Shown: one piece after another, positions 33,314-58,585 of the stretch
How the letters are laid out: each line of letters starts with the position of its first letter
How positions within the stretch are numbered: the first letter of the stretch is position 1
From: Fidelibacterota bacterium
GTDB taxonomy: Bacteria; Fidelibacterota; Marinisomatia; Marinisomatales; TCS55
Direction: 5' to 3'
DNA: 64,000 bases
Assembly (NCBI GenBank): GCA_965249165.1
Contig: OZ252221.1
Location: 945,347 to 1,009,346 of the forward strand
Made by a program: the position numbers and the translations under genes
The notes under the pieces: generated by a model
Database searches by the model: none
Seen by the model: the letters and a program-made list of their open reading frames with translations, nothing else
Told to the model about the DNA's origin: nothing

Positions 33314-33463
33314 TCTACTATGGGGTTTATGTTATTCGATGGTATTGTAAACCCTATTGCTTGCGCACATCATAAGCTGCGCTTGGTTTTTTACTCAATG
33401 GTGTTGTCCTCGATGGTATAGGCATCTCCACTCGTGCATTATTTCCTTAAATTTAACAAAATA

Positions 33464-33492
33464 TTGACGCCCTTTTCCAAAAGGGTTAAACT
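33464..33492 (+). promoter_or_regulatory. Sigma-70-like promoter (TTGACG-17-TAAACT) with an internal palindrome CCCTTTTCCAAAAGGG; duplicated in the right repeat arm
   Basis: -35 at 33464-33469 and -10 at 33487-33492. The spacer carries a perfect 7-2-7 palindrome. The mirror copy at 48559-48587 (minus strand) reads TTGACA-17-TAAACT with a 6-2-6 version of the palindrome. Confidence 0.4.
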
Positions 33493-33574
33493 ATTTCTTG
33501 CCTGTAAATTAGAGAATCTACTAACTGCTTTATCCTATATTATCTTATTTCACTTATTTCACCGAGTCGTATTG

Positions 33575-34117
33575 ATGAAATACAATCACGGAGTTCGAAT
33601 GAAATTTCTTAATGTTGTAGTTTTTCTGTTCTTGTTTAATCAGGTACTTCTGGCTGAAGAAAGCCAACTTCTGGCGGACTCTACTGCTGTCATTTCCAAC
33701 GATTCTTTAGGTGTAACCCGGTATTTAATCCAATTTCCAGAACCGGATTTTGAGGTTGTGCACTTAATCGATTCGATGATTGTTTCCATACCACTCACCG
33801 ATGGGGAGGGTGTTTTGGATGGACAGGAGCTGGATATTAATGCTATGTTGACGGAATGGGTGGGTTTGGTGGTGAGTTGGACTACACCCTGGGAAACGCC
33901 GGGGGGTGATGTAGATGATTTTTATATTACGGGCCGGGTGGATACGTCCACCAGTTGGTTGAGTGTGGATATTTCTCCGCTCTACGTTGCATTATATCAG
34001 GGGTATATTTACGATTATGGTTTTATGGTGAAGCTGGCGGATGAGATGGCCGGGCCACTCTACCTGCCGAATATCAATCAGTCTTTTATTACGGTTTATA
34101 GCAGTGATTTGGAGTAA
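33575..34117 (+). CDS. Small secreted protein of unknown function, first gene of the Rhs operon
   Basis: ATG at 33575 (MKYNHGVRMKFLNVVVFLFLFNQVLLAEES is a signal peptide). The same start region is conserved in the duplicate at 48498. The stop lies 3 nt before the Rhs ATG, and a GGAG inside its last codons serves the Rhs gene. The ORF-track start at 33434 is probably too far upstream. Confidence 0.7.
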   Translation: MKYNHGVRMKFLNVVVFLFLFNQVLLAEESQLLADSTAVISNDSLGVTRYLIQFPEPDFEVVHLIDSMIVSIPLTDGEGVLDGQELDINAMLTEWVGLVVSWTTPWETPGGDVDDFYITGRVDTSTSWLSVDISPLYVALYQGYIYDYGFMVKLADEMAGPLYLPNINQSFITVYSSDLE

Positions 34118-40100: not shown

Positions 40101-42220
40101 TTCAAATCGATTACCCGGATGATGAAACGATGGTCGCCTATACCTATAATCAGTTGGGTCAGCTAATATCTGTGGGGAATGATTCAGACTCCTACCGCTA
40201 CGCCATCTATATTTATAACCCGGATGGCAGCATTAATCGGGAAATCCTGTACCAAAGCGTAGGTTCATTGAGTCACAATTTTAGATATAACTCCCAGGGG
40301 CGCTTAGACGGAATCGGTCCCCAGGGTGGCTTTGGCTTCCATGAATCAATCGATTATTCCTATTCTGGAAATATAACTACCACCGGCATGGCCCTGGCGC
40401 AACAGGGTCCTGATACATTGGAAGGTGTGATTTATAATTACCGAACCAACTATACTTACGATGATCTGGGTCAACTGACCGGGGCAGTACACAATGATAA
40501 TGCCTTAACAGATTTGACGATGACCTACGATCCCAATGGGAATATTCTTACCCAGAACAATAGAACGTATAATTATATAAGCGGGACGAATAAAGTAAGG
40601 AACACCGATGGCAGCGGCAACGATTACACCTACAATGCCAATGGGAATATAACCAGGGCGAATCCAAAAAATATCCAACAGATCAGATACGATGCTTTTA
40701 CGCAAATGACCCGAAGGATTTTGACTAGTCGGAATATAACGTTCCAGTATGATGGCAGTAACCGCAGAGTATTTAGGAACCACCGTGTAAGAGTATATCC
40801 TCCGGGGGGAGGAGACAATCCGGTCATGAAGCAGAAATACCAAAAGGGACCATCGGAAGAAGCGGTGATCAAAGATCAGTATTCCGGTTTTTCTCCCGCT
40901 CAAGTGGAGTCAAAGATGATGGGCGCAATCACATGGATATACAATAATAAGCTCTATCTCCATGGTGAGAATGCGTATCCGTTGGTGGAGTACATCACCA
41001 GCACCAACGAATCGGAGACGAAGCAAGTGTATATCTACGGAGCCACGGGGTTGATCGCCACCCACCGAGACAGTACCACTTATACCATTATCAAAGACCA
41101 TCTGGGCAGTACCCGGCTGGTGCTGGACGAGGATTGGGCGGTGGTGAGCTGGTATGACTACGCGCCTTTTGGCAAGATCAGCCGCGGCGGAACCGGGACA
41201 AAGTTAAACTACCGCTACACCGGACAGGAAAGGGATGGTGCCACGGGGTTAATGAACTACCGCGCCCGAATGTACGACCCGGATTTAGGAAGATTTTATG
41301 CGGTGGATCCGGCAGGGCAGTTGGCCAGCCCTTACGCTTACGCCGGAAATAATCCCCTTATTATGGTGGACCCGGATGGGGAGTGGTTTTTTCTAATTCC
41401 CATGCTTTTTGGGGGCGCGGTGAATTATGCGATGTCAGATAATCCAACCTGGAAAGATTTTGCCATTGGTGCTGCACAAGGACTTCTAACTTATTATTCA
41501 GGTGGTGGTGGATTTGGGTTTTCAATGAATTCAGCAGCACAAGCAGGTTTAGACAAGTTTGCCATGAACACATTTGCGAGTATGGTTTGGGATGTGGGAT
41601 ATCGTAAATCTGGACTATCTGAACAGGTACAAAAAGAATTCGGCATGGGTTTTGACATTGCTTTTAACTTACTTGGCCCGGCAGCCATTGAAGGTGGATT
41701 GGCTAGTGCCGTTGGCCCTGCTGAAGGTGTAACATATGACGAAAGTATGACCTTAGAAGAAGTTCACGAAAAAGGGATGGTAAATTACCCTACAAAGAAA
41801 GCAGATATAGATTTAATGGAAGAAGGTGCGCATTTTGATGACACTGGTGCGGATTGGAAAAGAGGATACACAGTTTCTCATGGTGGTAAAACAGCATTTG
41901 TAAAAGAAAAGCCGGCTTATTTAAAGAAAAAAATTCTGGGTACTCATTATGGAACTTCAATAGGACCCAATACTGAAGATTTTACAAATGATCCTTTTTT
42001 TATTGGTTTGATTACAGGTGATGGTTATTTATCAGGTGGGATTAGTCATCAATCGAATACAAGAGCTTTGAACGCATTATTTGGCACATCCTTTTTACCG
42101 AGTCAAGTATTGGGTCAGAACTTTAACATTGGTTTTTATCAGTCTTTTATGGGGGCTGGGCATATGCCCTGGTCATTACAGCTGCATATGACTGGGAATT
42201 ATGTTAGGGCTTATGAATAG
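34121..42220 (+). CDS. Giant SpvB-N-terminal / Rhs (YD-repeat) polymorphic toxin, 2,699 aa, with C-terminal toxin tip
   Basis: - Signal-like N-terminus.
- SpvB-type block NLFSGDVNLPVNLVSLPGLNGLGVNVTAVYNS.
- Two jelly-roll-like inserts (about 37740-38240 and 38490-38990).
- Many YD repeats (YTYNQLGQL, YTYDDLGQL, MTYDPNGNI, YTYNANGNI...).
- Rhs core end: DHLGSTRLVLDE...YDYAPFGK...YRYTGQERDGATGLMNYRARMYDPDLGRFYAVDP...NNPLIMVDPDGEW (DPxGE at about 41370-41384).
- A 278-aa tip follows the core. Confidence 0.93.
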   Translation: MRIISKTFTNFITCFLLSAMVLNGQDDDFVAPLKLPESSSRDDDGSSPSAAPNIKTFALDPNLKGAVGNSVNLFSGDVNLPVNLVSLPGLNGLGVNVTAVYNSNIQNQVDTWNLTAPTGVLGLGWSLDYPKIVRNHKNTGTRHDDEFYLLAGGSSTPLLRTGTSTNGQTYYYRVKNDPNLEIRYYQEDADDTNGDMGYWEVLTGNGITQVFGNTDDSKQLGIRWKNWIGSSIIATNQTQFAIVWNLSSMRDDWGNAINYDYENVTNTIGAGANAKEYTEASYLGEIRDVYNRKVVFNYGEKSADEEYQDPHKEQGEPDAYQERYETRYLHNIEVYSDANVSDELFSIHFNYNFVGAGNLRKRLLAAIWQTNARMESLPPLKFTYYATGYHRGMLKTVTYTQGGITTYTYTSQDISSVGVSADRDRHVSRPTGYVGKPGIFVGHDYVVLIWENASGTINLETYIWTGRWVKTLDETLDIDDDSDATEYEVFIGEDYFALIEKFHTTQGIKPIHIYHKKEGLKGWYYYTHDLISNHSGCADGGGNNENRMNVAVGDDFISVVSIEHGREYRFQWNAQGETWNSYVSDCRNGDDTDDFYVAGTGNYYFFHNAIGYDRIYFRNRNELGNWTNSSFYLGSNTSDNGDYYQSWHSGSSFFVGLIRGHAEVAYTWDVNFQGFQRHNLGFQVNDVSPTFIRGSFVGIYDSGPNSSQFIRFNGSYWLNETFPGYGFTIGEDFMLTSGIGGIIRLLYNPNLNDYEEFAADNGEYYAYLTGLADQPKVSNNFVVAYHCCDGDNSAGIYVLYRFPGDFEFSEIANFPQTYSSPRVATGSNYFIIQNDDSYTSQFHFVKNGAHVASDAGSDNGKFIHYFDEYDFPDPVGANTAVAIRSGNDATLYRIVNDDFQGAIGDVVVSTMAMDDGYNSVSTSYEFQYGVSDPSGTVAQYNKVIVYPGGDTLNGFTEHYFFNGLETDESAAPFPAGSNVTNADSYYGLMTGRPYKIIAKDANGEVVSTTENYWFVTEFDIGPRKIGHYTRQRKQVSTTDGITKTVESTYAENSGYLTRTQTTNSNGDILTKSFTHFKNAYGDIDNLKSPIVKTITRNTRSGTATTTSATATTWKEWSPGKWAPNKTYTWNGNGSVIFNFSAWSGNVEPPSRWLKVSQVLERTSFGAVRRSADVDSTISSVIFDQTHKRPVAVFSAANISDNSIGNEAGYIGFESGYSTNSHPDNDYWSMPPANTFSTDAHSGKYSRKVIAGTPRYGPTRDFRPDDQYGTYVLSCWVKTEAGYNSSTNSSFKLHTKRDSGNNSLYPSIAAAWISIPIDDTDGKWEYLEVALDLGRVRELGDIPASELLRLRTFTANQDPDHYFLVDDITFRPLDSGFSATIIDPETRRVTARLGNNGETMRTVYDDFNRPLASIGPDEQVNALTMPYYSRYYNWGVLSGSWTEYDPDDPNSVLSITAQNGGIYDGFDDGDADGWTLAPTSHWQVEDGKLKINAHSGDETATAVLESSGAEAMAVSISAAAEFNDSLGVVGMAVGDYSIRCNLIGPDFARWRLYHDGNALVSGTGHAYGRKWTFIISQGMIHFFVDRELRLEYEDANAVGGEVVLFAEPWYGEMAEFDNVLVIHDPVVSRVYSDGMGKTIQSQRLDGDDIILSMPYYDEMNRAAVGFKPIKLDNHALEYNSDLVTAFDWAAGTYTGTMNNFHLADSGFNYTRWEYETTPLARVVKESLPGSGFQIGSGKEISYEYLPDPGETFTGINFDPEEHTIRKIEDPEGVKSVVVEDKLNKTLLKQLEDEDTPTTYSYNVKGQVDTIYLPNYFDSTVPSNEEFTIEMTYDHFGRLKSKATPDGGTERFIYHNRNGQLRFMQDGVGDNFNKVNYYKYDRIGRIKEAGHFAYSGSLNNLQDEANTIPDYPTNAPTWRKKYYYDRAGETGSTINYKGRLWRIETNNDNSSDVEVVETFRYNRGGEIVEKELLVSDYDSTQHYSTSYEYNNVGNVIQIDYPDDETMVAYTYNQLGQLISVGNDSDSYRYAIYIYNPDGSINREILYQSVGSLSHNFRYNSQGRLDGIGPQGGFGFHESIDYSYSGNITTTGMALAQQGPDTLEGVIYNYRTNYTYDDLGQLTGAVHNDNALTDLTMTYDPNGNILTQNNRTYNYISGTNKVRNTDGSGNDYTYNANGNITRANPKNIQQIRYDAFTQMTRRILTSRNITFQYDGSNRRVFRNHRVRVYPPGGGDNPVMKQKYQKGPSEEAVIKDQYSGFSPAQVESKMMGAITWIYNNKLYLHGENAYPLVEYITSTNESETKQVYIYGATGLIATHRDSTTYTIIKDHLGSTRLVLDEDWAVVSWYDYAPFGKISRGGTGTKLNYRYTGQERDGATGLMNYRARMYDPDLGRFYAVDPAGQLASPYAYAGNNPLIMVDPDGEWFFLIPMLFGGAVNYAMSDNPTWKDFAIGAAQGLLTYYSGGGGFGFSMNSAAQAGLDKFAMNTFASMVWDVGYRKSGLSEQVQKEFGMGFDIAFNLLGPAAIEGGLASAVGPAEGVTYDESMTLEEVHEKGMVNYPTKKADIDLMEEGAHFDDTGADWKRGYTVSHGGKTAFVKEKPAYLKKKILGTHYGTSIGPNTEDFTNDPFFIGLITGDGYLSGGISHQSNTRALNALFGTSFLPSQVLGQNFNIGFYQSFMGAGHMPWSLQLHMTGNYVRAYE

Positions 42221-42245
42221 TGATACAACTCATTGTTGACTGCTT

Positions 42246-42674
42246 ATGAAAAGGAAAATCTTATTGGGTATTGTTATGATTGAAATATGTGGCATTCTTG
42301 GATGTTTTTATGTTTATCCATTTTATGTAAGAAAGGAAATAAAAGGTGATTATATTTATGGAGTCTATGGAGATCAAAATGAAAGTGATTCATTACGTCA
42401 TAGTTTCATTTTTGCAGAATCAAAAGAATCATTCCAATGGACAAGACATAAATATGAGCCAATGAGGCCAGATGAACACTACATTTTTATAGGTGATTCA
42501 ATTAAAGTACTATCGAGTATACCTGTTAAACTGAGAATAAAAAGGGTAAAAATTGACGGAACTACTTATACCAGATATAGATATCCAAATAAATTTTCAA
42601 TGGATGGACCAGTGGATATATATGTGAGAAATAAGATCATAAAATTTATGCACGTAGAGAGATTCAATGAATAA
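42246..42674 (+). CDS. Putative cognate immunity lipoprotein 1 (family paralogue, leader type A)
   Basis: Lies immediately downstream of the Rhs stop. N-terminal hydrophobic leader ending ILGC (lipobox-like). Conserved core HYIFIGDS..VL...PVK..I..VKIDGTTYTRYRYP....DGP.DIYVRN..IKFM shared by six paralogues. Confidence 0.65.
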   Translation: MKRKILLGIVMIEICGILGCFYVYPFYVRKEIKGDYIYGVYGDQNESDSLRHSFIFAESKESFQWTRHKYEPMRPDEHYIFIGDSIKVLSSIPVKLRIKRVKIDGTTYTRYRYPNKFSMDGPVDIYVRNKIIKFMHVERFNE

Positions 42675-42740
42675 CTCTGTTGGATTTGCTCCGGTTTAGT
42701 TGCCATCTTAATTTTTTTGACTAGTAAATTTGACAAAAAA

Positions 42741-43036
42741 ATAGTCGGCACTCATTACGGGGTGTCGATAGGACCCAATACTGAAGATTTTACAAATGAT
42801 CCTCTTCTTAAGGGTTTGTTTACCGGTAATGGTTATTTATCAGGTGGAATTAGTCATCAATCGAATACAAGAGCTTTGAACGCATTATTTGGCACATCCT
42901 TTTTACCGAGTCAAGTATTGGGTCAAAACTGCTCATGGCTTTTATCAATCTTTTTTTGGAGCTGGGCATATGCCCTGGTCATTACAGCTGCATATGTATG
43001 GGAATTATGCTAGGGCTTATGAGTAATACAACTAAT
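42741..43036 (+). pseudogene. Orphan toxin-tip copy 1, 5'-truncated and frameshifted
   Basis: Homology to the main tip starts at ...KKIVGTHYGVSIGPNTEDFTNDP. The frame is lost after ...SQVLGQN (indel relative to the other copies), but the original stop context GCTTATGAGTAA is retained at 43025-43036. Confidence 0.75.
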
Positions 43037-43048
43037 TGAGGACTTCTT

Positions 43049-43495
43049 ATGAGAATGCAAATTTTATTTCTTACTGGTATGATTGGAACCTGTGTCTTTT
43101 TTGGATGTTTTCCTCCATTTTTTAGAATGTATGAAATAAAAGATGATTATGTTCATATAACACAATATATAGATAAAAGTGATTCAGTAAATCACTACTA
43201 CTATTACTATTTTGCGGAGTCAGAAAAAACACTCCAAGATGAAGGATATAGAAAGTACATGGAGCCAAATAGTTATACTATTTTTATAGGTGATTCAGTA
43301 GAAGTACTCTTGAGCTTACCTTTTAAACCAAAAATAAGAACGGTAAAAATTGACGGTACTACTTATACTAGACATCGATGTCCGAAAAAAATTTTTACCG
43401 GAATGGATGGACCATTAGATATATATGTAAGAAACAATACCATAAAATTTATGCGAATAAAGTTATTTGCAGAAGGGATGGGACCACAACGGTAA
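43049..43495 (+). CDS. Putative immunity lipoprotein 2 (leader type B)
   Basis: Leader MRMQILFLTGMIGTCVFFGC. Same conserved core as the other paralogues. The C-terminus ...KLFAEGMGPQR overlaps the next toxin-tip ORF. Confidence 0.6.
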   Translation: MRMQILFLTGMIGTCVFFGCFPPFFRMYEIKDDYVHITQYIDKSDSVNHYYYYYFAESEKTLQDEGYRKYMEPNSYTIFIGDSVEVLLSLPFKPKIRTVKIDGTTYTRHRCPKKIFTGMDGPLDIYVRNNTIKFMRIKLFAEGMGPQR

Positions 43496-43952
43496 AACAT
43501 TAGATCAAATTCACAAAGAAGGAATGAAAGGTTACAATGAAAAATATGTAGAATACATGGTAGAAGGTTTTCACTTTAATCAAACTGGTGCGGATTGGAA
43601 GAGAGGATACACAGTTTCTCATGATGGTAAAACAGCTTATGTAAAAGAAAAGACAGCTTATAGAGGTCTAGGGACTCATTATGGAACTTCAACATTACCA
43701 AATACTAAAGATTTTACAAATGATCCTTTTCTTAAGGGTTTGTTTACCGGTGATGGTTATTTATCACGCGGCATTAGTCATCAATCGAATACAAGAGCAT
43801 TAAACGCATTATTTGGCACATCCTTTTTACCGAGTCAAGTATTGGGGCAAAACTTTAACATTGGTTTTTATCAGTCATTTATGGGAGCTGGGCATATGCC
43901 CTGGTCTCTACAGCTGCATATGTATGGGAATTATCATAGGGCTTATGAGTGA
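43467..43952 (+). CDS. Orphan toxin-tip copy 2 (intact 161-codon ORF, no Rhs core or secretion part)
   Basis: Aligns with main tip residues ...TLEEVHEKGM... to the C-terminal ...NY.RAYE. The ORF-track start is a TTG, and it is uncertain whether the copy is translated independently. Confidence 0.55.
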   Translation: MQKGWDHNGKTLDQIHKEGMKGYNEKYVEYMVEGFHFNQTGADWKRGYTVSHDGKTAYVKEKTAYRGLGTHYGTSTLPNTKDFTNDPFLKGLFTGDGYLSRGISHQSNTRALNALFGTSFLPSQVLGQNFNIGFYQSFMGAGHMPWSLQLHMYGNYHRAYE

Positions 43953-43974: not shown

Positions 43975-44430
43975 ATGAAAAAGCGAATCTTATTGGGTAT
44001 TGTTATGATTGAAATATGTGGTATTCTGGGGTGTTTTTATCCATTTTATAAAACATATGAAATAAAAGATGATTATGTTCATATAATAAGATATGAAGAT
44101 CAAAGTGATTCAGTAGATCACTACTACTATTACTATTTTGCGGAATCAGAAAAACCACTCCAGAATCCAATAGATAGAAACAACCTAATGAAGCCAAATA
44201 GATATACCATTTTTATAGGTGATTCAGTAGAAGTACTCTTGAGCTTACCTTTTAAACCAAAAATAAGAACGGTAAAAATTGACGGCACTGCTTATACTAG
44301 ATATAGATATTCAGATGATTTTCATGGACGAGTGGATGTTAATGGACGATTGGATGTTTATATGAGAAATAATACTATTAAATTTATGCGAATAAAGTTA
44401 TTTGCAGAAGGGATGGGACCACAACGGTAA
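43975..44430 (+). CDS. Putative immunity lipoprotein 3 (leader type A)
   Basis: Leader MKKRILLGIVMIEICGILGC. The N-terminal half differs from paralogues 1, 2 and 4, while the C-terminal part is near-identical to paralogue 2. Confidence 0.6.
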   Translation: MKKRILLGIVMIEICGILGCFYPFYKTYEIKDDYVHIIRYEDQSDSVDHYYYYYFAESEKPLQNPIDRNNLMKPNRYTIFIGDSVEVLLSLPFKPKIRTVKIDGTAYTRYRYSDDFHGRVDVNGRLDVYMRNNTIKFMRIKLFAEGMGPQR

Positions 44431-44887
44431 AACATTAGATCAAATTCACAAAGAAGGAATGAAAGGTTACAATGAAAAATATGTAGAATACATGGTAGAA
44501 GGTTTTCACTTTAATCAAACTGGTGCGGATTGGAAGAGAGGATACACAGTTTCTCATGATGGTAAAACAGCTTATGTAAAAGAAAAGACAGCTTATAGAG
44601 GTCTAGGGACTCATTATGGAACTTCAACATTACCAAATACTAAAGATTTTACAAATGATCCTTTTCTTAAGGGTTTGTTCACCGGTGATGGTTATTTATC
44701 ACGCGGCATTAGTCATCAATCGAATACAAGAGCTTTGAACGCATTATTTGGCACATCCTTTTTACCGAGTCAAGTATTGGGCCAAAACTTTAACATTGGT
44801 TTTTATCAGTCTTTTATGGGGGCTGGGCATATGCCCTGGTCATTACAGCTGCATATGTATGGGAATTATCATAGGGCTTATGAGTGA
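44402..44887 (+). CDS. Orphan toxin-tip copy 3 (protein identical to copy 2)
   Basis: 161-aa translation identical to 43467-43952. I counted 8 nucleotide differences between the two copies, and all are synonymous. Confidence 0.55.
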   Translation: MQKGWDHNGKTLDQIHKEGMKGYNEKYVEYMVEGFHFNQTGADWKRGYTVSHDGKTAYVKEKTAYRGLGTHYGTSTLPNTKDFTNDPFLKGLFTGDGYLSRGISHQSNTRALNALFGTSFLPSQVLGQNFNIGFYQSFMGAGHMPWSLQLHMYGNYHRAYE

Positions 44888-44909: not shown

Positions 44910-45359
44910 ATGAGAAGCCAAATCTTATTTCTTACTGCAATGATCGCAACCTGTGTTATTTGTGGGTGTATTTACCCGTTTTCTGTAAGAAAAGAAATAA
45001 AAGATGATTTTGTTTATGTAGCACGCTATGATAAAGATCAAAATATAAGTGACTCATTATATAACTATCACGAATATTATTTTGCAGAATCAAAAAAAGC
45101 ACTTCAGGGTTCAAGAATTGGATATAGATATGACCCAATGGAGCCCAATAGACACTACATTTTTATAGGTGATTCAGTAGAAATACTCTTAAGGATACCT
45201 ATTAAACCGATAATAAAAACAGTAAAAATTCTCGGCATTACTTATACTAGATATCGATATTTATTAATTGATCCTATTGATGGACCATTAGATATATATG
45301 TGAGAAATAAGATCATAAAATTTATGCGAGTAAAGTTATTTGCAGAAGGGAGGATATAA
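44910..45359 (+). CDS. Putative immunity lipoprotein 4 (leader type B)
   Basis: Leader MRSQILFLTAMIATCVICGC; conserved family core; ends ...KLFAEGRI. Confidence 0.6.
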   Translation: MRSQILFLTAMIATCVICGCIYPFSVRKEIKDDFVYVARYDKDQNISDSLYNYHEYYFAESKKALQGSRIGYRYDPMEPNRHYIFIGDSVEILLRIPIKPIIKTVKILGITYTRYRYLLIDPIDGPLDIYVRNKIIKFMRVKLFAEGRI

Positions 45360-45436
45360 CATATGACGAAAGTATGACCTTAGAAGAAGTTCACGAAAAA
45401 GGGATGGTAAATTACATTTAAAGTGAAGCATATAAA

Positions 45437-45832
45437 ATGGAAGAAGGTGCGCACTTTGATCGAACTGATGTCGATTGGAAGAGAGGATACACAGTTTCTC
45501 ATGATGGTAAAACAGCATTTATAAAAGAAAAGACGGCTTATAGAGGTCTAGGTACTCATTATGGAGCGTCGATAGGACCCAATACTGAAAATTTTAAAAA
45601 TGATCATCTTCTTAAGGGTTTGTTTACAGGTGATGGTTATTTATCACGTGGGATTAGTCATCAATCGAATACAAGAGCTTTGAACGCATTATTTGGCACA
45701 TCCTTTTTACCGAGTCAAGTATTGGGCCAAAACTTTAACATTGGGTTTTATCAGTCTTTTATGGGGGCTGGGCATATGCCCTGGTCACTACAGCTTCATA
45801 TGTATGGGAATTATCATAGGGCTTATGAGTGA
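45437..45832 (+). CDS. Orphan toxin-tip copy 4 (131-codon ORF from an internal ATG; upstream homologous part interrupted by a stop)
   Basis: Homology to the main tip begins at about 45353 (TYDESMTLEEVHEKGMVNY). An in-frame TAA sits at 45419-45421. The ORF resumes at MEEGAHFD... and runs to the conserved ...NYHRAYE. Confidence 0.5.
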   Translation: MEEGAHFDRTDVDWKRGYTVSHDGKTAFIKEKTAYRGLGTHYGASIGPNTENFKNDHLLKGLFTGDGYLSRGISHQSNTRALNALFGTSFLPSQVLGQNFNIGFYQSFMGAGHMPWSLQLHMYGNYHRAYE

Positions 45833-45854: not shown

Positions 45855-46301
45855 ATGAAAAAGCGAATCTTATTGGTTATTGTTATGATTGAAATGTGTG
45901 GCATTCTTGGATGTTTTTATGTTTATCCATTTTATGTAAGAAAGGAAATAAAAGGTGACTATATTTGTAAAGCATATTATAATGTACCACATTATACAGA
46001 TAAAATTGAAAGTAACTTAGATATTCAATATTTCTATTTTGCAGAATCAAAAGAATTATTACAGAATGCAGAATATAAATATGAGCCAATGAACCCAAAT
46101 AACCACTACATTTTTATAGGTGATTCAGTAGAAGTACTCTCGATTATACCGGTTAAACCGAAAATAAAAAGGGTAAAAATTGACGGGACTACTTATAATA
46201 GATATAGATATCCATATGAATTTGCAATGGAAGGACCAGTGGATATATATGTGAGAAATAAGATCATAAAATTTATGCACGTAGAGATATTTACAGAATA
46301 A
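45855..46301 (+). CDS. Putative immunity lipoprotein 5 (leader type A, closest to paralogue 1)
   Basis: Leader MKKRILLVIVMIEMCGILGC. The C-terminus ...IKFMHVEIFTE and the downstream sequence (CTCTGTTGGACTTGCTCCGGTTTAGTTG...) mirror those of paralogue 1. Confidence 0.6.
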   Translation: MKKRILLVIVMIEMCGILGCFYVYPFYVRKEIKGDYICKAYYNVPHYTDKIESNLDIQYFYFAESKELLQNAEYKYEPMNPNNHYIFIGDSVEVLSIIPVKPKIKRVKIDGTTYNRYRYPYEFAMEGPVDIYVRNKIIKFMHVEIFTE

Positions 46302-46408: not shown

Positions 46409-46885
46409 ATGGTTACAATGGGAAGGCAAATCTTATTCCTTATTGTTATGATTGCAATGTGTGTTATTGTTGGATGTATTCCTCAATATTATGTTTGGAT
46501 ACCCCAAGAAATAAAAGATGATTATGTTTATATAATACCTTATACAGAGCAAGATGAAGATCAAACTAAAAGTGACTCATCATTTCAATTTTTCTATTTT
46601 GCAGAATCAAAAGAATCAATACCATCGGAAATTAAATCACAATATGGAATATTGAGCTATGACCCAATGGATCCGAATAGCCACTATATTTTTATAGGTG
46701 ATTCATTCGAAGTACTCTCAAATATGCCTGTTAAACCGGAAATACAAACGGTAACAATTGATGGAACTACTTATACTGTATATCGATATTCAAGTGAATT
46801 TACTGGTAAAATGGATGGACCATTGAATATATATGTGAGAAATAATACCATAGAATTTATGCGCATAATGTTATTTGTAAGATAA
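46409..46885 (+). CDS. Putative immunity lipoprotein 6 (most divergent paralogue; no toxin tip upstream)
   Basis: Leader ...GRQILFLIVMIAMCVIVGC. Conserved core HYIFIGDSFEVLSNMPVKPEIQTVTIDGTTYTVYRY...DGPLNIYVRNNTIEFMRI. Confidence 0.6.
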   Translation: MVTMGRQILFLIVMIAMCVIVGCIPQYYVWIPQEIKDDYVYIIPYTEQDEDQTKSDSSFQFFYFAESKESIPSEIKSQYGILSYDPMDPNSHYIFIGDSFEVLSNMPVKPEIQTVTIDGTTYTVYRYSSEFTGKMDGPLNIYVRNNTIEFMRIMLFVR

Positions 46886-48036: not shown

Positions 48037-48498
48037 TTACGCGATATTACGTTGGTACGTCCAAGCAAATACGTAAAGCATACGGAGAAGCGGAGAAATA
48101 TCCACACTCAGCCAACTGGCTGACGTATCCACCGTGCCAGTAATATAAAAATCATCTACATCACCCCCCGGCATTTCCCAGGGCGCAGTCCAACTTACCA
48201 CCGAACCAACCCATTCCGTCAGCATAGCATTAATATCCAGCTCTTGTCCATCCAAAACACCACCTCCATCGGTGAGTGGTATCGAGACAATCATCGAATC
48301 GATTAAGTGTACAATCTCAAAATCCGGTTCCGGAAATTGGATTAAATACCGGGTTACACCCAAAGAATCGTTGGAAATAACAGTGGAGGACTCAGCAAGG
48401 AGCTGGCTTTCTTCAGCCATAAGCGCCTGACTAAACAACAACAGAAAAACTACAACATGAAGACACTTCATTTTAATTCCATGATTGTGTTTCATCAA
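48037..48498 (-). pseudogene. 3'-truncated duplicate of the small secreted-protein gene (right repeat arm)
   Basis: The first roughly 135 codons parallel 33575-33981 (MMKHNHGIKMKCLHVVVFLLLFSQALMAEESQLL...SVDISPL). The tail LRMLYVFAWTYQRNIA is unrelated and overlaps the orphan rhs fragment. Confidence 0.75.
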
Positions 48499-49684: not shown

Positions 49685-50524
49685 TTAATTATTTTTTTGA
49701 GCAATTCCGACTAAAAGACTTCCAAGATTAAAAACATTTGATAAACGATATGAAATTCTATTAATAATAGGCTGTTTAATACGTATTTGTCCCCATACAT
49801 GATGATTATTTGGATAGGGGGAAAGTAATTTCATTTTCATATCAACAATCTCAAATAATTTCTTCATGGATTTATAAGAATAAGCTCTCATATGTCTTAC
49901 AGGTTGTATGCAACCATAATCTTTTGAAATTATTGGAGATATCTTTCGGAAACTTGAAATAAGAGAATTATGATTAGGAACTTCAAAATGTAATAGACCG
50001 CCAGGTCGTAATGCATTAATGATATCTTTTAATAAATCTTTAGGGTTTTCAAAATGTTCCAAAACTTGACAGGCATAGATTAAATCAAAACATTCTTTAT
50101 AGTCCGAAATTTTATTATTCTTTATTGGAATATTCTGTTTCTGTCCCCAATCTAACCATTTTCGATTAATTTCTAAACCAATCCAGGAAATATCATTATC
50201 TTTAAATGTGCTATAACAAATACCTGGTCCACTTCCTATTTCCATTACATTTTTTAATGGACTCCCCTTGAATTTTTCATAAAAATAAATGCGGTTTTTA
50301 CATTTTTCACTAGCTATTATTTTACATCCATTAAAAGTATTTAATAACATTGATAAATTTTCATCAAGTGAAGGTGTTGTATCAGAGTCAATTTCTCTAT
50401 GAATTATTTCTGGACAGTAAAACATGTTACAAATTTTGCACGAAATAATTTTTTGATTAGACCAAACAAATGAGGTTAAACGTGTTTTTTCATCGCAAAT
50501 GGGGCATGGAATTAAAAAATTCAT
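49685..50524 (-). CDS. Class I SAM-dependent methyltransferase with N-terminal Cys4 zinc-ribbon-like motif
   Basis: CPICDE...CKICN at the N-terminus, SAM motif I VMEIGSGPG, post-I/II blocks FDLIYACQVLEHF and LRPGGLLHFEVPN. Confidence 0.75.
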   Translation of the reverse strand: MNFLIPCPICDEKTRLTSFVWSNQKIISCKICNMFYCPEIIHREIDSDTTPSLDENLSMLLNTFNGCKIIASEKCKNRIYFYEKFKGSPLKNVMEIGSGPGICYSTFKDNDISWIGLEINRKWLDWGQKQNIPIKNNKISDYKECFDLIYACQVLEHFENPKDLLKDIINALRPGGLLHFEVPNHNSLISSFRKISPIISKDYGCIQPVRHMRAYSYKSMKKLFEIVDMKMKLLSPYPNNHHVWGQIRIKQPIINRISYRLSNVFNLGSLLVGIAQKNN

Positions 50525-50600
50525 TATTTTATTTTTCTATTAAGCAGTTTTTATAATCATTAATTATATTTCAAAATCATTTATCACATTTATTTTAGCT

Positions 50601-51090
50601 TAACTATCATCAGATTTGTTTTTAATCTTTTTTGAGCCATAAAACTCGGGCATTATTTTATTGCCTTCTAGTGAAATACCCCATCCCGTAATAATTTGAA
50701 AAAATGTTATAAATAGTATTTTTATATCCAAAAAAAATTATTCTGTACATAATATATATCATAGTCTGATTTTTCTTCCCAAGATATCTTATTTCTTCCT
50801 TTTATCTGAGCTAAGCCTGTTATTCACAGGATTTATCAGATGACGTTGGTTTTGATAGTCATTGAAACGATCTTTATATTTAATCAGCAATGGTCGTGGT
50901 CCTACTAAACTCATATCTCCTTTAAGTACATTAAATAAAGCAGGGAGCTCATATAGACTTGTTCTCCTTAATAAATTACCTATAATTGTTATTCTCATTT
51001 CATCATGTTTAGAACTTAATGATACTCCTTTTCTCATTGTTCTAAATTTATATATAGTGAATTCACTAGATAGTTTACAAACGAACTTGC
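50601..51090 (-). pseudogene. Bacterial sugar transferase (polyprenyl-phosphate hexose-1-P transferase family) remnant: N-terminally truncated and frameshifted
   Basis: [12 protein letters not shown]...[35 protein letters not shown] is the family core. After about 50800 the expected continuation ([38 protein letters not shown]) is in another frame. The N-terminal TM/first block is missing because the upstream gene abuts it. Confidence 0.7.
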
Positions 51091-51998
51091 TTAAATAGTA
51101 TCAGATAACCTGACATTAATAAAATCTATAATAAAATTATTAATAATTCCTGAAGATTTTACTGGATTATCTTCAGGAATTACAATACCAGCCTTTTCTT
51201 TTTCTAAAAGAGTTTTTTGCCATCCACTGTAATTAATCATGACTGGTTTTCCAGCAGATAAACCATCAAAAAATTTATTAGCAGAATTATAATTCAGTTC
51301 TTCTATTGGGATTGTAAAAGATGAAACCAGCGTAGCTCTATTAATCAAATTAGGCAATTCTTTCTTACTTATTGGATTAACAATAAACAAATTATTACCT
51401 AATACATTTAATTGTTTTGAATATTTAATAATATGTGATTTTTCTTTCCCTTTTCCAGCCAATAAAAATTTGACATTCTTATTTATTTTCAACGTTTCAT
51501 AAGCTATATCAACTAAATAGCTCATACCATTGACTTTCCCAATTGCACCAGCGTATAAAATAAACGGAGAATCTCCTATCATTTTTAAAACTTTATTAAG
51601 TTCTTTATGGTCAAGATTTTCATTATCTACTTTTAAAGATCCAAAGTTTGGTATTGTAACGATTTTCTTACTTTCAATTCCTTTTTTTATTAGATACTTT
51701 TTCATATCGATAGAAAGAACAATAATTTTTTCAGATACTAAGAAGGATTGAAAAATTAATAAAAACAATAATCCGCTTATAAAATCCCATTTTATGAGAA
51801 TATAGGACAGGTAACCAGTAAACTTTAATTCCATTTTCAATTGAAAAATGATTTTTATTTTTCTTATTATCTTTCTGTGATGTGATCATGCGTACATCAT
51901 GACCATCTCTAACAAGTCTTATGGCTAGTTCAAAAAGATCGAGTAGAGCCATGAGTATTTGGTGTGTTGAAATATTGATGTAAATAAATTATTTTCAT
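51091..51998 (-). pseudogene. GT4-family (GT-B) glycosyltransferase split by at least two frameshifts
   Basis: Three consecutive pieces lie in different frames. These are MKIIYLHQYFNTPNTHGSTRSF (from 51998), ...LFELAIRLVRDGHDVRMIT... (ORF 51731-51952), and the C-terminal half with the EX7E-like region (ORF 51091-51840). Confidence 0.7.
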
Positions 51999-52028
51999 CA
52001 GAATAATAAATAAATTTTTCCAGCATCA

Positions 52029-52763
52029 TTATATAAGAAAAAAATCAATAAATCTATATAATTTATTTACACTAATCACTTGTTCGTTTATCCATTTATA
52101 AGTTTTTTCATCCCCTCTCTTAAAGATTTTGATACTTTCCATCCAATTTTTTCAAAATACAAATTGTTATCTGAGTTTCTCCCTCTAACTCCTTCTGGAC
52201 CAGAAACATTATTAATTTTTATTTTTTTCAGAAATATTAATAACCATTTCTGCTAAACTATTAATATTTATCATTTTTTCAGAACCAATGTTAACTGGAC
52301 CAGTAAATTTTGATTGTACTAATCTTCTAATAGCCTCAATACATTCATCTATATATAAAAATGATCTCGTTTGTTTGCCATCACCCCAAATTTCTATGGA
52401 AGTATTATTTTTAGCCTCAGCAACTTTTCTACATATAGCAGCTGGTGCTTTTTCTTTCCCTCCTGTCCATGTGCCTTGTGGGCCAAAAATATTATGAAAG
52501 CGAGCTATACGCACATTTAGTTTATAATTCCTAGAGTAAGAAAGGTATAATCTTTCACTAAATAATTTTTCCCAGCCATATTCACTATCTGGGTTAGCTG
52601 GATATGCAGAGTCTTCAGAACATTTAGGATTAGCTGGATCAGTTTGATGATATTCAGGATATTTAAGATCCACTCCTCTTACCCAGGAACCTTCTTTTTT
52701 AAGTCTTTTAACTAAATGACTGCCAATAAACCCTCCTGCACCGCATACTAATATTTTTTTCAT
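52029..52763 (-). pseudogene. NAD-dependent sugar epimerase (GDP-mannose-3,5-epimerase-like) with internal in-frame deletion and two 3' frameshifts
   Basis: N-terminus KILVCGAGGFIGSHLVKRLKKEGSWVRGVDLKYPEY jumps directly to HQTDPANPKCSEDSAYPANPDSEYGWEKLF, so about 95 aa of the Rossmann/catalytic core expected between these blocks are absent. After ...NISEKN the conserved tail (NVSGPEGVRGRNSDNNLYFEKIGW..., then KTYKWINEQ) continues in two other frames, each shift at an A-run. Confidence 0.7.
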
Positions 52764-53584
52764 TTTAGTTCCTTGATAATACTTTTTATTCCTTCTTCTA
52801 ATGAAATTTTAGGCTCCCAAAAATTTAATATATAGGGATTTTGTTTATTTCTTTTGTCTTGTTGAACCATATCTTTAGTCTTAGCTGGAACAACCTTAAC
52901 ATCCTCGAATTGAGAAGCAACTATATTTGCTATATCTAATATAGATATCCATTCAAAGCTTGTAATATGATAATCTTTTATTTTATCCAATTTTTGAAAA
53001 TTTTGACTCAATATGTATAAGCATCTTGAACAGTCTTCAACATGTAGAAATTGTCTTAATTCTTGACCATCTGTCATCATATCAATAATTCCTGTTTTTT
53101 GAGCTTTTATAATAAAATCAGTGATGACATGTGCTTTTTCTAAATTGTGTTCTACACCATAAACATTCCAAAATTTCACGGCTAAACCATTCATTGTATT
53201 AACATATCTTTCACCAATTGCTTTCGCCACTCCGTAAGGTGAATAACTCATATTTGACATCTGGCTAGAAGCGAAGATAAACGGTTTATTATGTTTTTTT
53301 AATGCAGAAAATGTATTGCTCATTATCTTAACATTATTATCAAAGAAATCAAAACTATGCTGATATTTTGAAAGATATCTTGAACCACCAACGTCAAAAG
53401 CTAAGAAGAATACAAAATCACTTTTTTGAATATAATCTGATAATAAAACATTATTATTTATTCTTAAATCTTCTTCTTCATTATTCACTATATCAAATTC
53501 GAATATTTGATTCCCTTGGTCTTTTAAATATTTACATAATGGAGAGCCGATTTGGCCTGATGACCCTAAAACAAGATATTTCAT
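52760..53584 (-). CDS. NAD-dependent epimerase/dehydratase family protein
   Basis: LVLGSSGQIGSPL Rossmann motif and catalytic YGVAK (Y-x3-K); 274 aa; overlaps the downstream gene by 4 nt. Confidence 0.7.
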   Translation of the reverse strand: MKYLVLGSSGQIGSPLCKYLKDQGNQIFEFDIVNNEEEDLRINNNVLLSDYIQKSDFVFFLAFDVGGSRYLSKYQHSFDFFDNNVKIMSNTFSALKKHNKPFIFASSQMSNMSYSPYGVAKAIGERYVNTMNGLAVKFWNVYGVEHNLEKAHVITDFIIKAQKTGIIDMMTDGQELRQFLHVEDCSRCLYILSQNFQKLDKIKDYHITSFEWISILDIANIVASQFEDVKVVPAKTKDMVQQDKRNKQNPYILNFWEPKISLEEGIKSIIKELK

Positions 53585-53615
53585 AGTTTAATTCAATTTC
53601 ATTAAGGATTAAATG

Positions 53616-54491
53616 CTAATTTTTATAAACAGTCTTAAAATATTTATGAATTTTTCTTTTAATCGTTAATATAATTCTCCAAAAATAATTTGTGGATAAC
53701 GCTGAATAAATTATTCTAGGGAATCTAGGATTTTTAATGCCATATTCATCTAATAGCTTATTTGCATCTCTTAATGAAAAGGCAGACCAGTAACCGCCAA
53801 CCAATTTAAAATTTCTCTCACATTCAACATGAAAAGATTCTTCTCTTTTTAATGGATAATCATGATTTTGATGGATTATTGTGATCAATTCTGTTGCATC
53901 TATTACAGGAATTTTATTTGATCTTGCCTTATATACTAACCAACTATCAAATCCAGGCCTGCCAACTACAAAAGGTGGTGGACCAAATAAATAATCTTTT
54001 CTAAATATCCAATAATCTATTCCTGACATTCCATGAAGTTTCCCTTCAAATGGTAATCTATTAATTAATTTTTGAAACCACATACCTTGACTATCAAACT
54101 TAATAGCCTCTCTTACATCAAGGTCCCAACGGCGTCCTACCATTAAAAATGGGTTTTTCTCAAGCAAAATACATACTTTATTAATAGTTTTTACAAAGTC
54201 GTTTGATAAAATAATATCTGCATTAACCTGAGCAACAATATCAAATTTTGCATATTCTTTTATTTTTTCAAAAACACCATCAATTAATGGAGTTCCAAAT
54301 TCATTTGTTTTCACATCCGTTATTAAATCAACATGCAATTCGTTTGCTATCTTTTTAGTAGTACCTTCCTCATCTTCAAATAAAATAATTTGAACTTCAG
54401 GTTTAATATGTTTCCAGCTTCTAATAGCATTTTGCTGAATAATATCAAAAGGTCCAGTGAAGGGCCTTGGATTACTAAATATTGTGATCAT
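53616..54491 (-). CDS. Hypothetical protein, possibly a GT-A-like glycosyltransferase
   Basis: 291 aa, soluble, sits between the polymerase-like and epimerase genes. The N-terminal beta-alpha-beta pattern and the acidic NADIIL block are suggestive only. Confidence 0.4.
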   Translation of the reverse strand: MITIFSNPRPFTGPFDIIQQNAIRSWKHIKPEVQIILFEDEEGTTKKIANELHVDLITDVKTNEFGTPLIDGVFEKIKEYAKFDIVAQVNADIILSNDFVKTINKVCILLEKNPFLMVGRRWDLDVREAIKFDSQGMWFQKLINRLPFEGKLHGMSGIDYWIFRKDYLFGPPPFVVGRPGFDSWLVYKARSNKIPVIDATELITIIHQNHDYPLKREESFHVECERNFKLVGGYWSAFSLRDANKLLDEYGIKNPRFPRIIYSALSTNYFWRIILTIKRKIHKYFKTVYKN

Positions 54492-54534
54492 CTATTATCT
54501 CACGAATTATTTAATATATACTATCAACTTGTTT

Positions 54535-55782
54535 TTATTTATATCTTTGAAAAATAAATAAAAATGAAAATACTATTATCCATGTCATTATAATACTATT
54601 ATAAATAAAAATACTTATTACTGGCGAATATAAAATAAATGCATAAAAAGACGTTAATGGAAATAACCAAAATATATTATTATTTAAAGTTTTATTAAAT
54701 GTTACAGTAGATAAAAACCCCATTATCATTCCCATCAATAATGTCCCAAATAATGAAAAATCATTTATTAAACCCCTAAGAGATGAATAAACATTGGTAA
54801 AGTATAAATTATAAATATGAGTATGATTATAAAAACCAAGTTTTCTTTCCATTAAATTCAATAAATCAAATGGACCAGCAAAAGTTGACATACCCAGAGT
54901 ATAATCAATATTATAATTATAAGTAACCCAAGTCGTAAATGCAGATAAATAACCAAAAAAGTATAATTTCATTCTTCCAATAATTAAATCAGTAAACATT
55001 TCTCCACCAGCCAAACGAATCCAATCAAGAGCGACAAACAAGAGGATAAAAAGGCTTCCAGCTATTATTAGAAAAACAAATGTTTTTTTATTTAATAATT
55101 TCTTCAAGTTATCATTGGTAGCAACTCTAGAGCCAATATATGCTGCTAACCAAACAACAATAGCTAAAAGAATTGTTGTTCGCACTGTTTCAATTGTCCC
55201 TTTTAATACAGCTATCATTAATGGTGATAAATAAAGTAAAGTTTCTTTTTTAGTTCTGGAAATTCCGTATCCTATTCCACCAAACATTGCAGCAGGAAAT
55301 ACCCAATAAATGAAAAATTTTATATAAATGGGTAAAATAAGTAATTCATTATATCTTTCAGCAGAAATTTGATTTGGTAAAATAAGAAAACTAATAAAAC
55401 TATAATCTAGATTAAATCTAGATATAGTATAAATGAGCATTAAAACAAGTCCAATAATTGATAAAATGGAACTTATAATTGTACCAGATTTTACCAAACT
55501 AGAAAACTTTATAATTTCTGCTGATTGGCTATTTGCTTCTATCTTGTTTTCTGAAATAGCAAATAAGGAACCTATCCCAACAGACATGCAAATCGCAAAA
55601 ATAATCCAAATACCAAAAGCTGGGATATAATACTCAGGTGTAAAAACTATAGGACAAATAATAAAAAAGAACCATAGGAGAGAAAAAAATGCACCTGGAG
55701 CAAGCCAAGACTTATGAATCTTTCTAAGAAAGCATGCGGTTATAAATAATAAAATAAGTGGAAGGATAATTTGGTTATTCAT
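54535..55782 (-). CDS. Polytopic membrane protein, O-antigen/EPS polymerase-like (Wzy/EpsG-type)
   Basis: 415 aa with at least 10 hydrophobic helices and one larger loop. Located next to the flippase-like gene in a glycan cluster. No diagnostic motif, as is usual for Wzy. Confidence 0.5.
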   Translation of the reverse strand: MNNQIILPLILLFITACFLRKIHKSWLAPGAFFSLLWFFFIICPIVFTPEYYIPAFGIWIIFAICMSVGIGSLFAISENKIEANSQSAEIIKFSSLVKSGTIISSILSIIGLVLMLIYTISRFNLDYSFISFLILPNQISAERYNELLILPIYIKFFIYWVFPAAMFGGIGYGISRTKKETLLYLSPLMIAVLKGTIETVRTTILLAIVVWLAAYIGSRVATNDNLKKLLNKKTFVFLIIAGSLFILLFVALDWIRLAGGEMFTDLIIGRMKLYFFGYLSAFTTWVTYNYNIDYTLGMSTFAGPFDLLNLMERKLGFYNHTHIYNLYFTNVYSSLRGLINDFSLFGTLLMGMIMGFLSTVTFNKTLNNNIFWLFPLTSFYAFILYSPVISIFIYNSIIMTWIIVFSFLFIFQRYK

Positions 55783-55787
55783 CTAAT

Positions 55788-57032: not shown

Positions 57033-57208
57033 TGAGGTTTTTGTAAAATTTTTTAAAGTGAAGAATTATCGACATCAATTTTATAATATCTTTGATATAG
57101 TCATAAGAATAATTAATTATAAAATTTGATTAAAGATTGATAATGGCTTGACCTAATATAATGTAAATATAATTATTGAATAATTTGTATAAACATAGTA
57201 ATAATGAT

Positions 57209-58441: not shown

Positions 58442-58585
58442 TATTAATTAAAATTAATATTTCTTTTAAATTAATGGTTTTAAACCCTTTTAAACTAAAT
58501 AATAATTTTGATATATACTTAACGTTCATATATCTATTCAAAGTCCAACCAAGAGACGGACTTAGTCAAAAAAGTTGAGTCAAAG

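Follow-up and report, generated by a model that had tools for sequence, protein, structure and literature searches.

A rare toxin domain at the tip of a Marinimicrobia Rhs protein, paired with leader-bearing immunity candidates and predicted to act in the periplasm

A 64,000-nucleotide stretch of contig OZ252221.1 (positions 945,347 to 1,009,346 of the forward strand; assembly GCA_965249165.1), referred to here as the window, comes from a genome of the Marinimicrobia (SAR406, FCB group; Fidelibacterota) and carries a polymorphic Rhs toxin locus. The C-terminal tip of its Rhs protein ends in a toxin domain that matches no described family, and the gene is followed by an array of orphan toxin copies and six paralogous immunity genes whose products all begin with a signal-like leader ending in Gly-Cys. 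On balance we think it likely that the domain is a new member of the envelope-acting class of contact-dependent toxins, with a periplasmic target and leader-bearing immunity proteins. The initial annotation of the window had proposed an extracytoplasmic site of action, and this is strengthened by the same pairing of toxin domain and leader-bearing family in two other lineages; we infer a periplasmic site of action, and the chemistry is speculative.

The Rhs open reading frame (ORF) has an N-terminus that on inspection resembles a Sec-type signal, and it contains YD repeats (NCBIfam TIGR01643, YD_repeat_2x; E 7e-9, 35.8 bits with a cutoff of 15.8). Pfam searches identify an SpvB domain (aa 116–304; 25.7 bits, cutoff 22), DUF6443 (aa 1626–1743) and a weak match to DUF6531. 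The Rhs-associated core (Rhs_assc_core, TIGR03696; E 3.7e-21, 75.4 bits, cutoff 32.5) stops exactly before the tip, and the sequence leading into it (…YDPDLGRFYAVDPAG…MVDPDGEW) has the DPxG…DPxG form and is an autoproteolysis-type motif. MVDPDGEW occupies aa 2415–2422, from nt 41363, and beyond it the tip has two parts, as the initial annotation had described: a 113-aa Gly-rich segment and a 164-aa terminal domain. All of the peptide strings quoted in that annotation are found in the sequence, and its start coordinate of 41385 is two bases off frame, the in-frame start being 41387. With YD repeats, an Rhs core ahead of a variable tip, and a downstream gene together with orphan cassettes, the locus has the hallmarks by which Rhs/YD polymorphic toxins are recognized. 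Pfam finds no PAAR or prePAAR domain on the Rhs protein and no VgrG, EagR or other gene of a type VI secretion system (T6SS) is adjacent to it in the window; the SpvB domain is a point of comparison with Tc-toxin BC proteins, and no TcA-like gene was found within the window.

Downstream of the Rhs gene, four orphan copies of the toxin domain, three of them readable and one frameshifted, are interleaved with the immunity genes (Table 1). Relative to the main copy their identity is 77–85%. There are about five repeats of the toxin/immunity unit, with a period of ~930 bp and 78–85% DNA identity, and the array is closed by an orphan Rhs core fragment, which breaks off before the core motif and carries no tip. 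The orphan cassettes have neither the pre-toxin segment nor the Rhs core, and their DNA homology to the main gene begins at 41730–41750, at the linker/toxin junction, and continues through the immunity gene. The G+C content is 45.8% in the Rhs body and 44% in the linker, and falls to 37% in the toxin domain and 29–31% in the immunity genes. Because the start of homology and the drop in G+C content fall at the same junction, we take the mobile module to be the toxin domain plus immunity gene, with the linker in the constant part of the gene in this genome.

The readable orphans are informative in two other respects. Those at 43467 and 44402 encode identical proteins, yet the immunity proteins that follow them (I3 and I4) differ markedly, with a pairwise rate of nonsynonymous substitution (dN) of 0.26; either there is no one-to-one correspondence between toxin and immunity variation, or gene conversion has homogenized the toxins. 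Both of these ORFs also overlap the 3′ end of the preceding immunity gene by 29 nt (43467–43495 and 44402–44430, with a TTG start), and the overlapped ends encode an extension, …FAEGMGPQR. It is probable that the orphans are silent cassettes that are not expressed.

The six immunity candidates (I1–I6) form one paralogous family with 48–75% identity to I1, and each has a Lys or Arg within the first seven residues, then a hydrophobic stretch, with an invariant Gly-Cys pair at residues 19–20 (22–23 in I6); in order, the leaders end in ILGC, FFGC, ILGC, ICGC, ILGC and IVGC. Lipoprotein signals have a charged n-region, an uncharged h-region and a lipobox of the form [LVI][ASTVI][GAS]-C, with the Cys at residues 15–35 (PROSITE PS51257-like), and three of the six leaders (I2, I4 and I6) pass this rule when it is strictly applied. 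The initial annotation had described six lipoprotein-like paralogues; the six genes, their membership of one family and the invariant Gly-Cys all stand, and the strict lipobox holds for just these three. Hydrophobic and aromatic residues run on past the leader Cys, so an uncleaved signal anchor with its N-terminus inside is possible. However, because the Lys/Arg-rich N-terminus would lie inside, either topology puts the body of the immunity protein in the periplasm. The mature part is about 120 aa, and motifs common to the family are [FY]F[AD][EQ]S, HY[IV]F[IL][GN]D…L.S[LI]P.KP and …[VI][YF][VI][KR]N. Searches of the immunity proteins against Pfam and NCBIfam gave sub-threshold noise only.

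The toxin domain is rare. When 1.84 billion representative proteins were scanned exhaustively with HMMER, four clusters were recovered, two from this genome (P0011, an orphan Rhs fragment of 742 aa whose tip is a variant, and P0012, a fragment) and two from outside it (P0014, 303 aa, E 1.5e-6, and P0013, 96 aa, E 2.7e-7), which places the domain in three lineages only: this genome, a Joint Genome Institute (JGI) metagenome and one metagenome-assembled genome from NCBI. A word-indexed search of 5.8 billion clusters with the toxin domain returned two fragments, both from the same 2.14-Mb contig of this genome, and searches of the same type with alignments of the immunity family and of the whole tip gave matches within this genome and P0014 and nothing else. 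There was no match to the tip by tblastn among 72,556 plasmids, and scans of metagenome and genome contigs with family alignments gave pattern matches of which none was confirmed as a relative; the genome that the window comes from is itself absent from the GTDB representative set. Elsewhere in the same genome there is a second full-length Rhs protein (P0016, 2,711 aa) whose tip is nearly identical, a further toxin fragment with a frameshift, and three more immunity paralogues, making nine with those in the window. These same-genome members outside the window (P0016, P0011, P0002, P0006, P0007 and P0010 are the proteins considered) indicate at least one further locus of the system.

In both outside lineages the toxin domain is accompanied by small leader-bearing genes. 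P0014 is encoded on JGI metagenome contigs L001–L003 (31% G+C) within an array in which orphan tips occur together with small leader-bearing ORFs, and P0013 on a 1.46-kb contig (L084; 33% G+C) of GCA_017973835.1, where a small ORF encoding a lipobox-type leader comes after each of two toxin copies. A hidden Markov model built from the mature parts of the nine paralogues of this genome matched both L084 ORFs (E 2.5e-6 and 3.7e-5, among 112 ORFs), and when it was iterated with the L084 members the best remaining matches were the two ORFs directly downstream of P0014 (E 8.4e-5 and 4.2e-3); hhalign comparison of the immunity alignment with single L001 lipoproteins was not significant before the L084 members were added. 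Thirteen family members are seen in all (nine in this genome, two in L084 and two in L001), and all have an N-terminal leader, none being cytoplasmic; twelve of the leaders end in Gly-Cys and one in Asn-Cys (YFCGC and INGC in L084, VTGC and LSNC in L001). Because a family bearing signal or lipobox leaders follows the toxin in all three lineages, extracytoplasmic action is the best reading of the data, and the repetition of the unit about five times, together with its recurrence in two unrelated assemblies, indicates that this is not a chance pattern.

The initial annotation had recognized no toxin signature in the terminal domain and had named assignment to a known cytoplasmic toxin family as an outcome that would count against it. 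Profile searches were run and matched no such family: the tip has no Pfam or NCBIfam match at E ≤ 1, and of two alignments used in sequence-profile searches of the PDB, one had no match and the other only noise at E ≥ 0.48. The suggestion that both families are undescribed is thus borne out to the extent that no described family is detectable by sequence (Pfam and NCBIfam for both, with PDB profiles for the toxin). The main copy and the orphan copies downstream share the four conserved pieces that it had picked out. In an alignment of seven sequences from the three lineages there are eight invariant single positions (His2609, Tyr2636, Gly2640, Asn2651, Gly2655, Ser2685, Asn2693 and Tyr2698) and three invariant motifs (LPxQ at 2659–2662, FxQS at 2672–2675 and GxG at 2678–2680), and no acidic residue is invariant. 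The ratio of nonsynonymous to synonymous substitution rates (dN/dS) is 0.02–0.43 in the C-terminal part of the toxin, orphans included, at synonymous rates (dS) of 0.14–0.31, which argues that the domain is under constraint. It is about 0.55 in the N-terminal part of the toxin and 0.5–1.25 in the mature parts of the immunity proteins, and variation is concentrated where toxin and immunity protein would be expected to meet.

Our best guess at the chemistry, held with low confidence, is a Cys/Ser-His hydrolase or acyltransferase, suggested by a His on a strand, a polar residue, and a Cys or Ser at the start of a helix, possibly in a permuted papain/NlpC-P60-like order. The His is His2609 (codon at nt 41945–41947); the polar residue would be that of a [D/N]-F pair found 10–13 residues past it in each of four lineage representatives; and the Cys/Ser is at position 2642 (codon at nt 42044–42046), which is Ser (AGT) in all five window copies and Cys (TGT) in all three sequences from outside. 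The distance from His to Cys is 33 residues, and position 2642 is directly before the sole helix predicted in both of two low-confidence AlphaFold2 models. The neighboring His2643 is Gln in L084 and so is not essential. Since both models are unusable, we can only infer hydrolase chemistry.

Several other active-site types were considered and rejected. An HNH or 'SHH'-type nuclease does not fit because the His of SHQ is Gln in L084, and a C-X5-R phosphatase loop fails because the Arg is not conserved. For the nucleophile elbow of alpha/beta-hydrolases (G-x-S-x-G) the +2 residue is Gln or Asn, for a zinc-ligand triad of His, His and His, Glu or Asp the third position is Tyr in L084, and for a lipocone there are no conserved acidic residues.

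The segment between the Rhs core and the toxin domain is rich in Gly (16%), Ala (14%) and Phe (10%), weakly hydrophobic, and has a net charge of −4. It had been likened in the initial annotation to a glycine zipper or membrane-insertion segment, and the sequence does not bear out either likeness. Kyte-Doolittle means over 19 residues reach at most 1.06 in the tip (in windows from tip residues 6 and 96, counting Met2415 as residue 1), where a classical transmembrane (TM) helix has a mean of about 1.6; [GAS]xxxGxxx[GAS] occurs three times in the segment with 2.2 ± 1.4 expected (2,000 shuffles, p 0.38), and P0014, the only distant homologue of the segment, does not keep the motif at these positions. 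With hydropathy below the TM range and zipper motifs at chance level, a TM segment and a glycine zipper are both unsupported. The segment itself is real and specific: P0014 aligns across 96% of the whole tip, segment included (…FGIGAAMSILTYASAGG…SAAEAGFTKA…AWDVTYEKTG…FGPAVFE…), and this same segment precedes the toxin domain in both lineages with a visible upstream region. It may serve in packing within the Rhs cocoon, in passage or tethering at the target envelope, or in translocation, a role put forward for the GxxxG region of Tde1, which is a glycine-zipper region needed for inner-membrane translocation (PMC10240207).

We note that another tip on L001 (6620–7369; JGI 3300049396, Ga0499492_0083) starts with …FMFVDPDGEFFLLAVAAVLGGS… and is likewise Gly/Ala-rich and hydrophobic after the Rhs motif. 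A Cys motif, GPNTCGLAV, follows this start, and the tip is followed in turn by leader-bearing ORFs of 230–270 aa from a family that is repeated several times on that contig. It may be that tips in this Rhs clade generally have a Gly/Ala-rich start following DPDGE.

These features suggest a scheme in which the Rhs protein would be exported by Sec and the tip released, by analogy with known Rhs proteins, through autoproteolysis at the core. The pre-toxin segment, which travels with the toxin family, would then tentatively aid packaging, or passage or tethering at the target envelope, and the 164-aa domain would act on the periplasmic side of the target cell, most likely on the cell wall, on lipid-linked precursors or on a membrane lipid. 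The immunity proteins would be lipoproteins or signal-anchored proteins with the N-terminus inside, and in the Marinimicrobia, which we take to be diderm, their bodies would face the periplasm, so that they most likely neutralize the toxin by binding it there. Cassette duplication has given rise to the orphan toxin fragments and the six diverging immunity paralogues, and the array could act as a store for tip switching and as protection against the variants of relatives. A more far-reaching version combines a new catalytic fold or chemistry acting from the periplasm (e.g. a minimal permuted Cys/His hydrolase with a Ser nucleophile), lipoprotein immunity of a new fold, a segment for crossing or tethering at the outer envelope, and a Sec-exported cocoon independent of any T6SS, in a marine phylum that is free-living; taken as a whole we consider this rather unlikely.

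Periplasm-acting T6SS effectors, including the Tae/Tai amidases, Tge/Tgi muramidases and Tle/Tli lipases, have periplasmic or lipoprotein immunity proteins. TelC/TipC is a further envelope-acting effector/immunity pair (PMC12419801). The locus resembles these pairs in the signal or lipobox leaders of its immunity proteins, a standard indicator of an envelope target, and differs in having no sequence similarity to them (Pfam and NCBIfam) and no recognizable T6SS or type VII secretion system for delivery. With Rhs/YD polymorphic toxins, as represented by the Rhs proteins of Enterobacteria and WapA of Bacillus in Zhang et al. 2012 (PMC3482391), it shares the YD repeats, the DPxG…DPxG core, the variable tip followed by an immunity gene, the orphan tip/immunity cassettes and the orphan core fragment. 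The differences are that neither Pfam nor NCBIfam includes the tip or the immunity family, that the host belongs to the Marinimicrobia, and that the protein has a Sec-type leader and SpvB-like N-terminus rather than a linkage to PAAR or VgrG.

Permuted papain-like and NlpC-P60 enzymes (LRAT/H-Rev107, YiiX/YaeF and PPPDE) act on lipids or cell-wall peptides, and such a substrate would suit periplasmic immunity. The toxin domain is like them in its strand His (G-x-H-[YVS]-[GNA]), in the Asp or Asn about 11 residues later, and in the Cys at a helix N-terminus; it differs in giving no profile match, in a His-to-Cys distance that is short by comparison, and in the Ser of this genome, and we regard the likeness as a lead rather than a classification. 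The Rhs tip of Tse5 (RhsP1 of Pseudomonas aeruginosa) is similarly without an enzymatic signature and rich in small residues. However, Tse5-CT has the behavior of a TM protein and is paired with an immunity protein, Tsi5, that has two TM helices (PMC9637101, PMC10684867), whereas here the tip has no TM-grade segment and there is only a single N-terminal leader in each immunity protein. Lipocone tips (Min-Wnt, CapCone and prok-TelC) are described in PMC12419801 as predicted to act on lipid head groups in the periplasm, with immunity proteins that are all TM proteins or lipoproteins, and with a core of four helices that carry a conserved His (H2), Glu (H3) and Asp (H4). Predicted periplasmic action and lipoprotein- or TM-type immunity are shared, but there is no counterpart here of the His, Glu and Asp, with no invariant acidic residue and His2643 replaced by Gln in L084, and the Pfam families associated with lipocones in the same source (DUF2279, DUF2238 and DUF4056) are not matched at E ≤ 10.

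A number of observations weigh against the envelope-acting hydrolase that we favor. On the immunity side, I1, I3 and I5 fail the strict lipobox rule, solely through Glu13 in the h-region, and the LSNC leader of L001 has Asn at −1. The delivery apparatus (PAAR, VgrG, TcA or a two-partner secretion partner) was not found in the window. The candidate His/[D/N]/Cys(Ser) triad is drawn from just seven sequences in three lineages, the spacing of the [D/N]-F pair varies from 10 to 13 residues with an inconsistent MAFFT alignment there, and it is unusual for a papain-like enzyme to have Ser where the nucleophile Cys is presumed to be, such that position 2642 could be non-catalytic. Pfam searches of six family members at E ≤ 10 gave nothing relevant and no NlpC/P60, LRAT or papain-like model. 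The AlphaFold2 models have predicted local distance difference test (pLDDT) scores of 35.5 (three-sequence alignment) and 41.1 (six-sequence alignment) and are unusable, and a Foldseek search of the PDB with the better of the two gave noise (best E 0.37, template modeling score <0.25).

Among the alternatives to a periplasmic enzyme, we regard as distinctly unlikely a membrane-permeabilizing tip (a pore or ionophore), in which the Gly/Ala segment and the nearly uncharged, helix-rich last 55 residues would insert into the inner membrane of the target and dissipate the membrane potential, with the lipoproteins blocking this from the periplasm. Gly and Ala together make up 30% of the linker, the stretch ALNALFGTSFLPSQVLGQNFNIGFYQSFMGAGHMPWSLQLHMTGNY is without any charged residue, and no enzymatic signature is apparent; precedents are the pore-forming Rhs tip of Tse5 (PMC9637101) and glycine-zipper depolarizing toxins (PMC12744356). 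However, the hydropathy maximum described above leaves no TM-grade segment, the zipper motifs are at chance level and unconserved, and the linker is not part of the orphan cassettes or of the unit that is paired with immunity. A two-TM inner-membrane protein like Tsi5 (PMC9637101) is also unlike the immunity proteins here, and the invariant His and the Cys/Ser, standing within an otherwise variable half of the domain, look catalytic. The same Gly-rich segment could instead carry the domain across the inner membrane to a cytoplasmic target, as has been proposed for Tde1 with its GxxxG region or for the entry domains of CdiA-CT, the lipoproteins intercepting it in the periplasm. Translocation by the Tde1 glycine zipper (PMC10240207) and the conservation of the linker with the toxin in P0014 are in keeping with this, but all 13 immunity members have a leader, GxxxG is at chance level, and there is no nuclease, deaminase or ADP-ribosyltransferase signature in Pfam or NCBIfam, and we think a cytoplasmic target very unlikely.

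A different kind of explanation is that the toxin is decaying or inactivated, its presumed nucleophile Cys having changed to Ser and the array being a relic held by gene conversion rather than by function. The Ser in five of five window copies, with Cys in the three sequences outside, would be expected of such a relic, as would the presence of one frameshifted cassette, one that is truncated at its N-terminus and one immunity gene without a toxin partner; against it are the two full-length Rhs genes with intact tips, the retention of all the other invariant positions, purifying selection on the C-terminal part of the toxin at dS up to 0.31, and the nine immunity paralogues that are maintained and diverging, so that decay seems to us less probable again than a cytoplasmic target. 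Least probable of the readings considered, and one to which we give very little credence, is that the protein has no antibacterial role, being a Tc-toxin-like BC cocoon or an adhesin directed at eukaryotes, to which the downstream lipoproteins are unrelated. The SpvB/TcB-like N-terminal region and the lack of T6SS, PAAR or VgrG context would suit this. However, the window has no TcA-like gene, the toxin and lipoprotein families are adjacent in three lineages, and a tandem array of orphan toxin and immunity genes is a hallmark of interbacterial polymorphic toxin systems (PMC3482391).

On the sequence evidence the locus provides new families of both toxin and immunity protein within a well-known Rhs framework and in an unusual host. 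Unannotated Rhs tips are very common and the standard logic of such systems is kept throughout, which limits the novelty; nonetheless, the two families would add an envelope-targeting toxin and its immunity to the polymorphic toxin catalogue. They would also show investment in contact-dependent antagonism, with two full-length Rhs proteins and at least nine immunity paralogues, in the Marinimicrobia/SAR406, an abundant uncultured lineage of the ocean; a full-text literature search found no paper naming Marinimicrobia, Rhs and toxin together. Mechanism could be probed through the natural exchange of Cys for Ser at the best candidate for a catalytic residue, a ready-made experiment, and six diverging immunity paralogues set against toxins that differ mainly in their N-terminal half would make a compact system for mapping specificity.

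Table 1. Features of the Rhs locus, in window coordinates; a slash precedes the Cys of each immunity leader.
Feature	Position	Strand	Basis
Small, secreted-looking product of the gene just before the Rhs ORF; weak DNRLRE-domain match	33434..34117	+	Domain search, repeat
Rhs/YD-repeat protein, 2699 aa	34121..42220	+	ORF; Pfam and NCBIfam domains
Rhs-associated core, YDPDLGRF…VDPAG…MVDPDGE; cocoon/tip boundary	41159..41380	+	TIGR03696, aa 2347–2420
Pre-toxin segment FFLIPMLF…GPAE, aa 2423–2535, 113 aa	41387..41725	+	Composition, hydropathy, alignment to P0014
Toxin domain, aa 2536–2699, 164 aa	41726..42220 (coding aa to 42217)	+	Family searches, invariant columns, GC 37%
Immunity candidate I1, 142 aa, with leader MKRKILLGIVMIEICGILG/C; presumed to be cognate to the expressed tip	42246..42674	+	ORF, leader analysis
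Orphan toxin-domain copy, truncated and frameshifted; GTHYG to LGQN, then out of frame	42717..43013	+	DNA homology
Immunity paralogue I2, 148 aa, …CVFFG/C; strict lipobox pass	43049..43495	+	ORF, leader analysis
Orphan toxin-domain cassette; main-gene homology from 43497 at TLDQ; no linker, no Rhs core	43467..43952	+	DNA homology
Immunity paralogue I3, 151 aa, …ILG/C	43975..44430	+	ORF, leader analysis
Orphan toxin-domain cassette; protein identical to the 43467 copy (dN 0, dS 0.10)	44402..44887	+	DNA homology
Immunity paralogue I4, 149 aa, …VICG/C; strict lipobox pass	44910..45359	+	ORF, leader analysis
Orphan toxin-domain cassette; ORF from 45437, DNA homology from 45357; 85% identical to main copy	45357..45832	+	DNA homology
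Immunity paralogue I5, 148 aa, …ILG/C; 75% identical to I1	45855..46301	+	ORF, leader analysis
Immunity paralogue I6, 158 aa (155 from second Met), …VIVG/C; strict lipobox pass; no toxin fragment before it	46409..46885	+	ORF
Orphan Rhs core fragment, 398 aa	46947..48143	+	DNA: 97% to 40431–41195, 94% to 40151–40306
Inverted partial copy of the upstream small gene	48037..48498	-	DNA repeat comparison

The whole Rhs and cassette locus is bracketed by an inverted repeat (33410–33994 on the plus strand and 48646–48074 on the minus strand; 86.5% identity over 592 bp). The repeat takes in the promoter-proximal portion of the small gene that precedes the Rhs gene, and its far copy lies directly against the end of the orphan Rhs core fragment; it looks like the scar of an inversion or of recombination between two Rhs loci. 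A scan of the locus for promoters and terminators found sites no more frequently than in shuffled sequence.

The neighboring genes in the window are housekeeping genes, including those for UvrA, RuvB, QueA, IspD, PriA, an H+-PPase, ribosomal proteins and a MutY-like protein. The UvrA protein has 80–83% identity to those of Marinimicrobia/Ca. Neomarinimicrobiota metagenome-assembled genomes, which places the host in this phylum of the FCB group. There is an insertion sequence (IS) element at about 58.6–59.4 kb with an rve-type integrase (HTH_21 and rve; ORF 58586–59449, minus strand), of which a 418-bp inverted partial copy is present near the left end of the window (788–1205 compared with 58558–58973; 94.7% identity). 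Adjoining the IS element is a very low-G+C island of minus-strand genes at about 50000–58500 (26–31% G+C, compared with about 42% elsewhere), which has genes of polysaccharide biosynthesis for a group-1 glycosyltransferase, an NAD-epimerase, a Polysacc_synt flippase and a methyltransferase, and is probably a horizontally acquired surface-glycan cluster.

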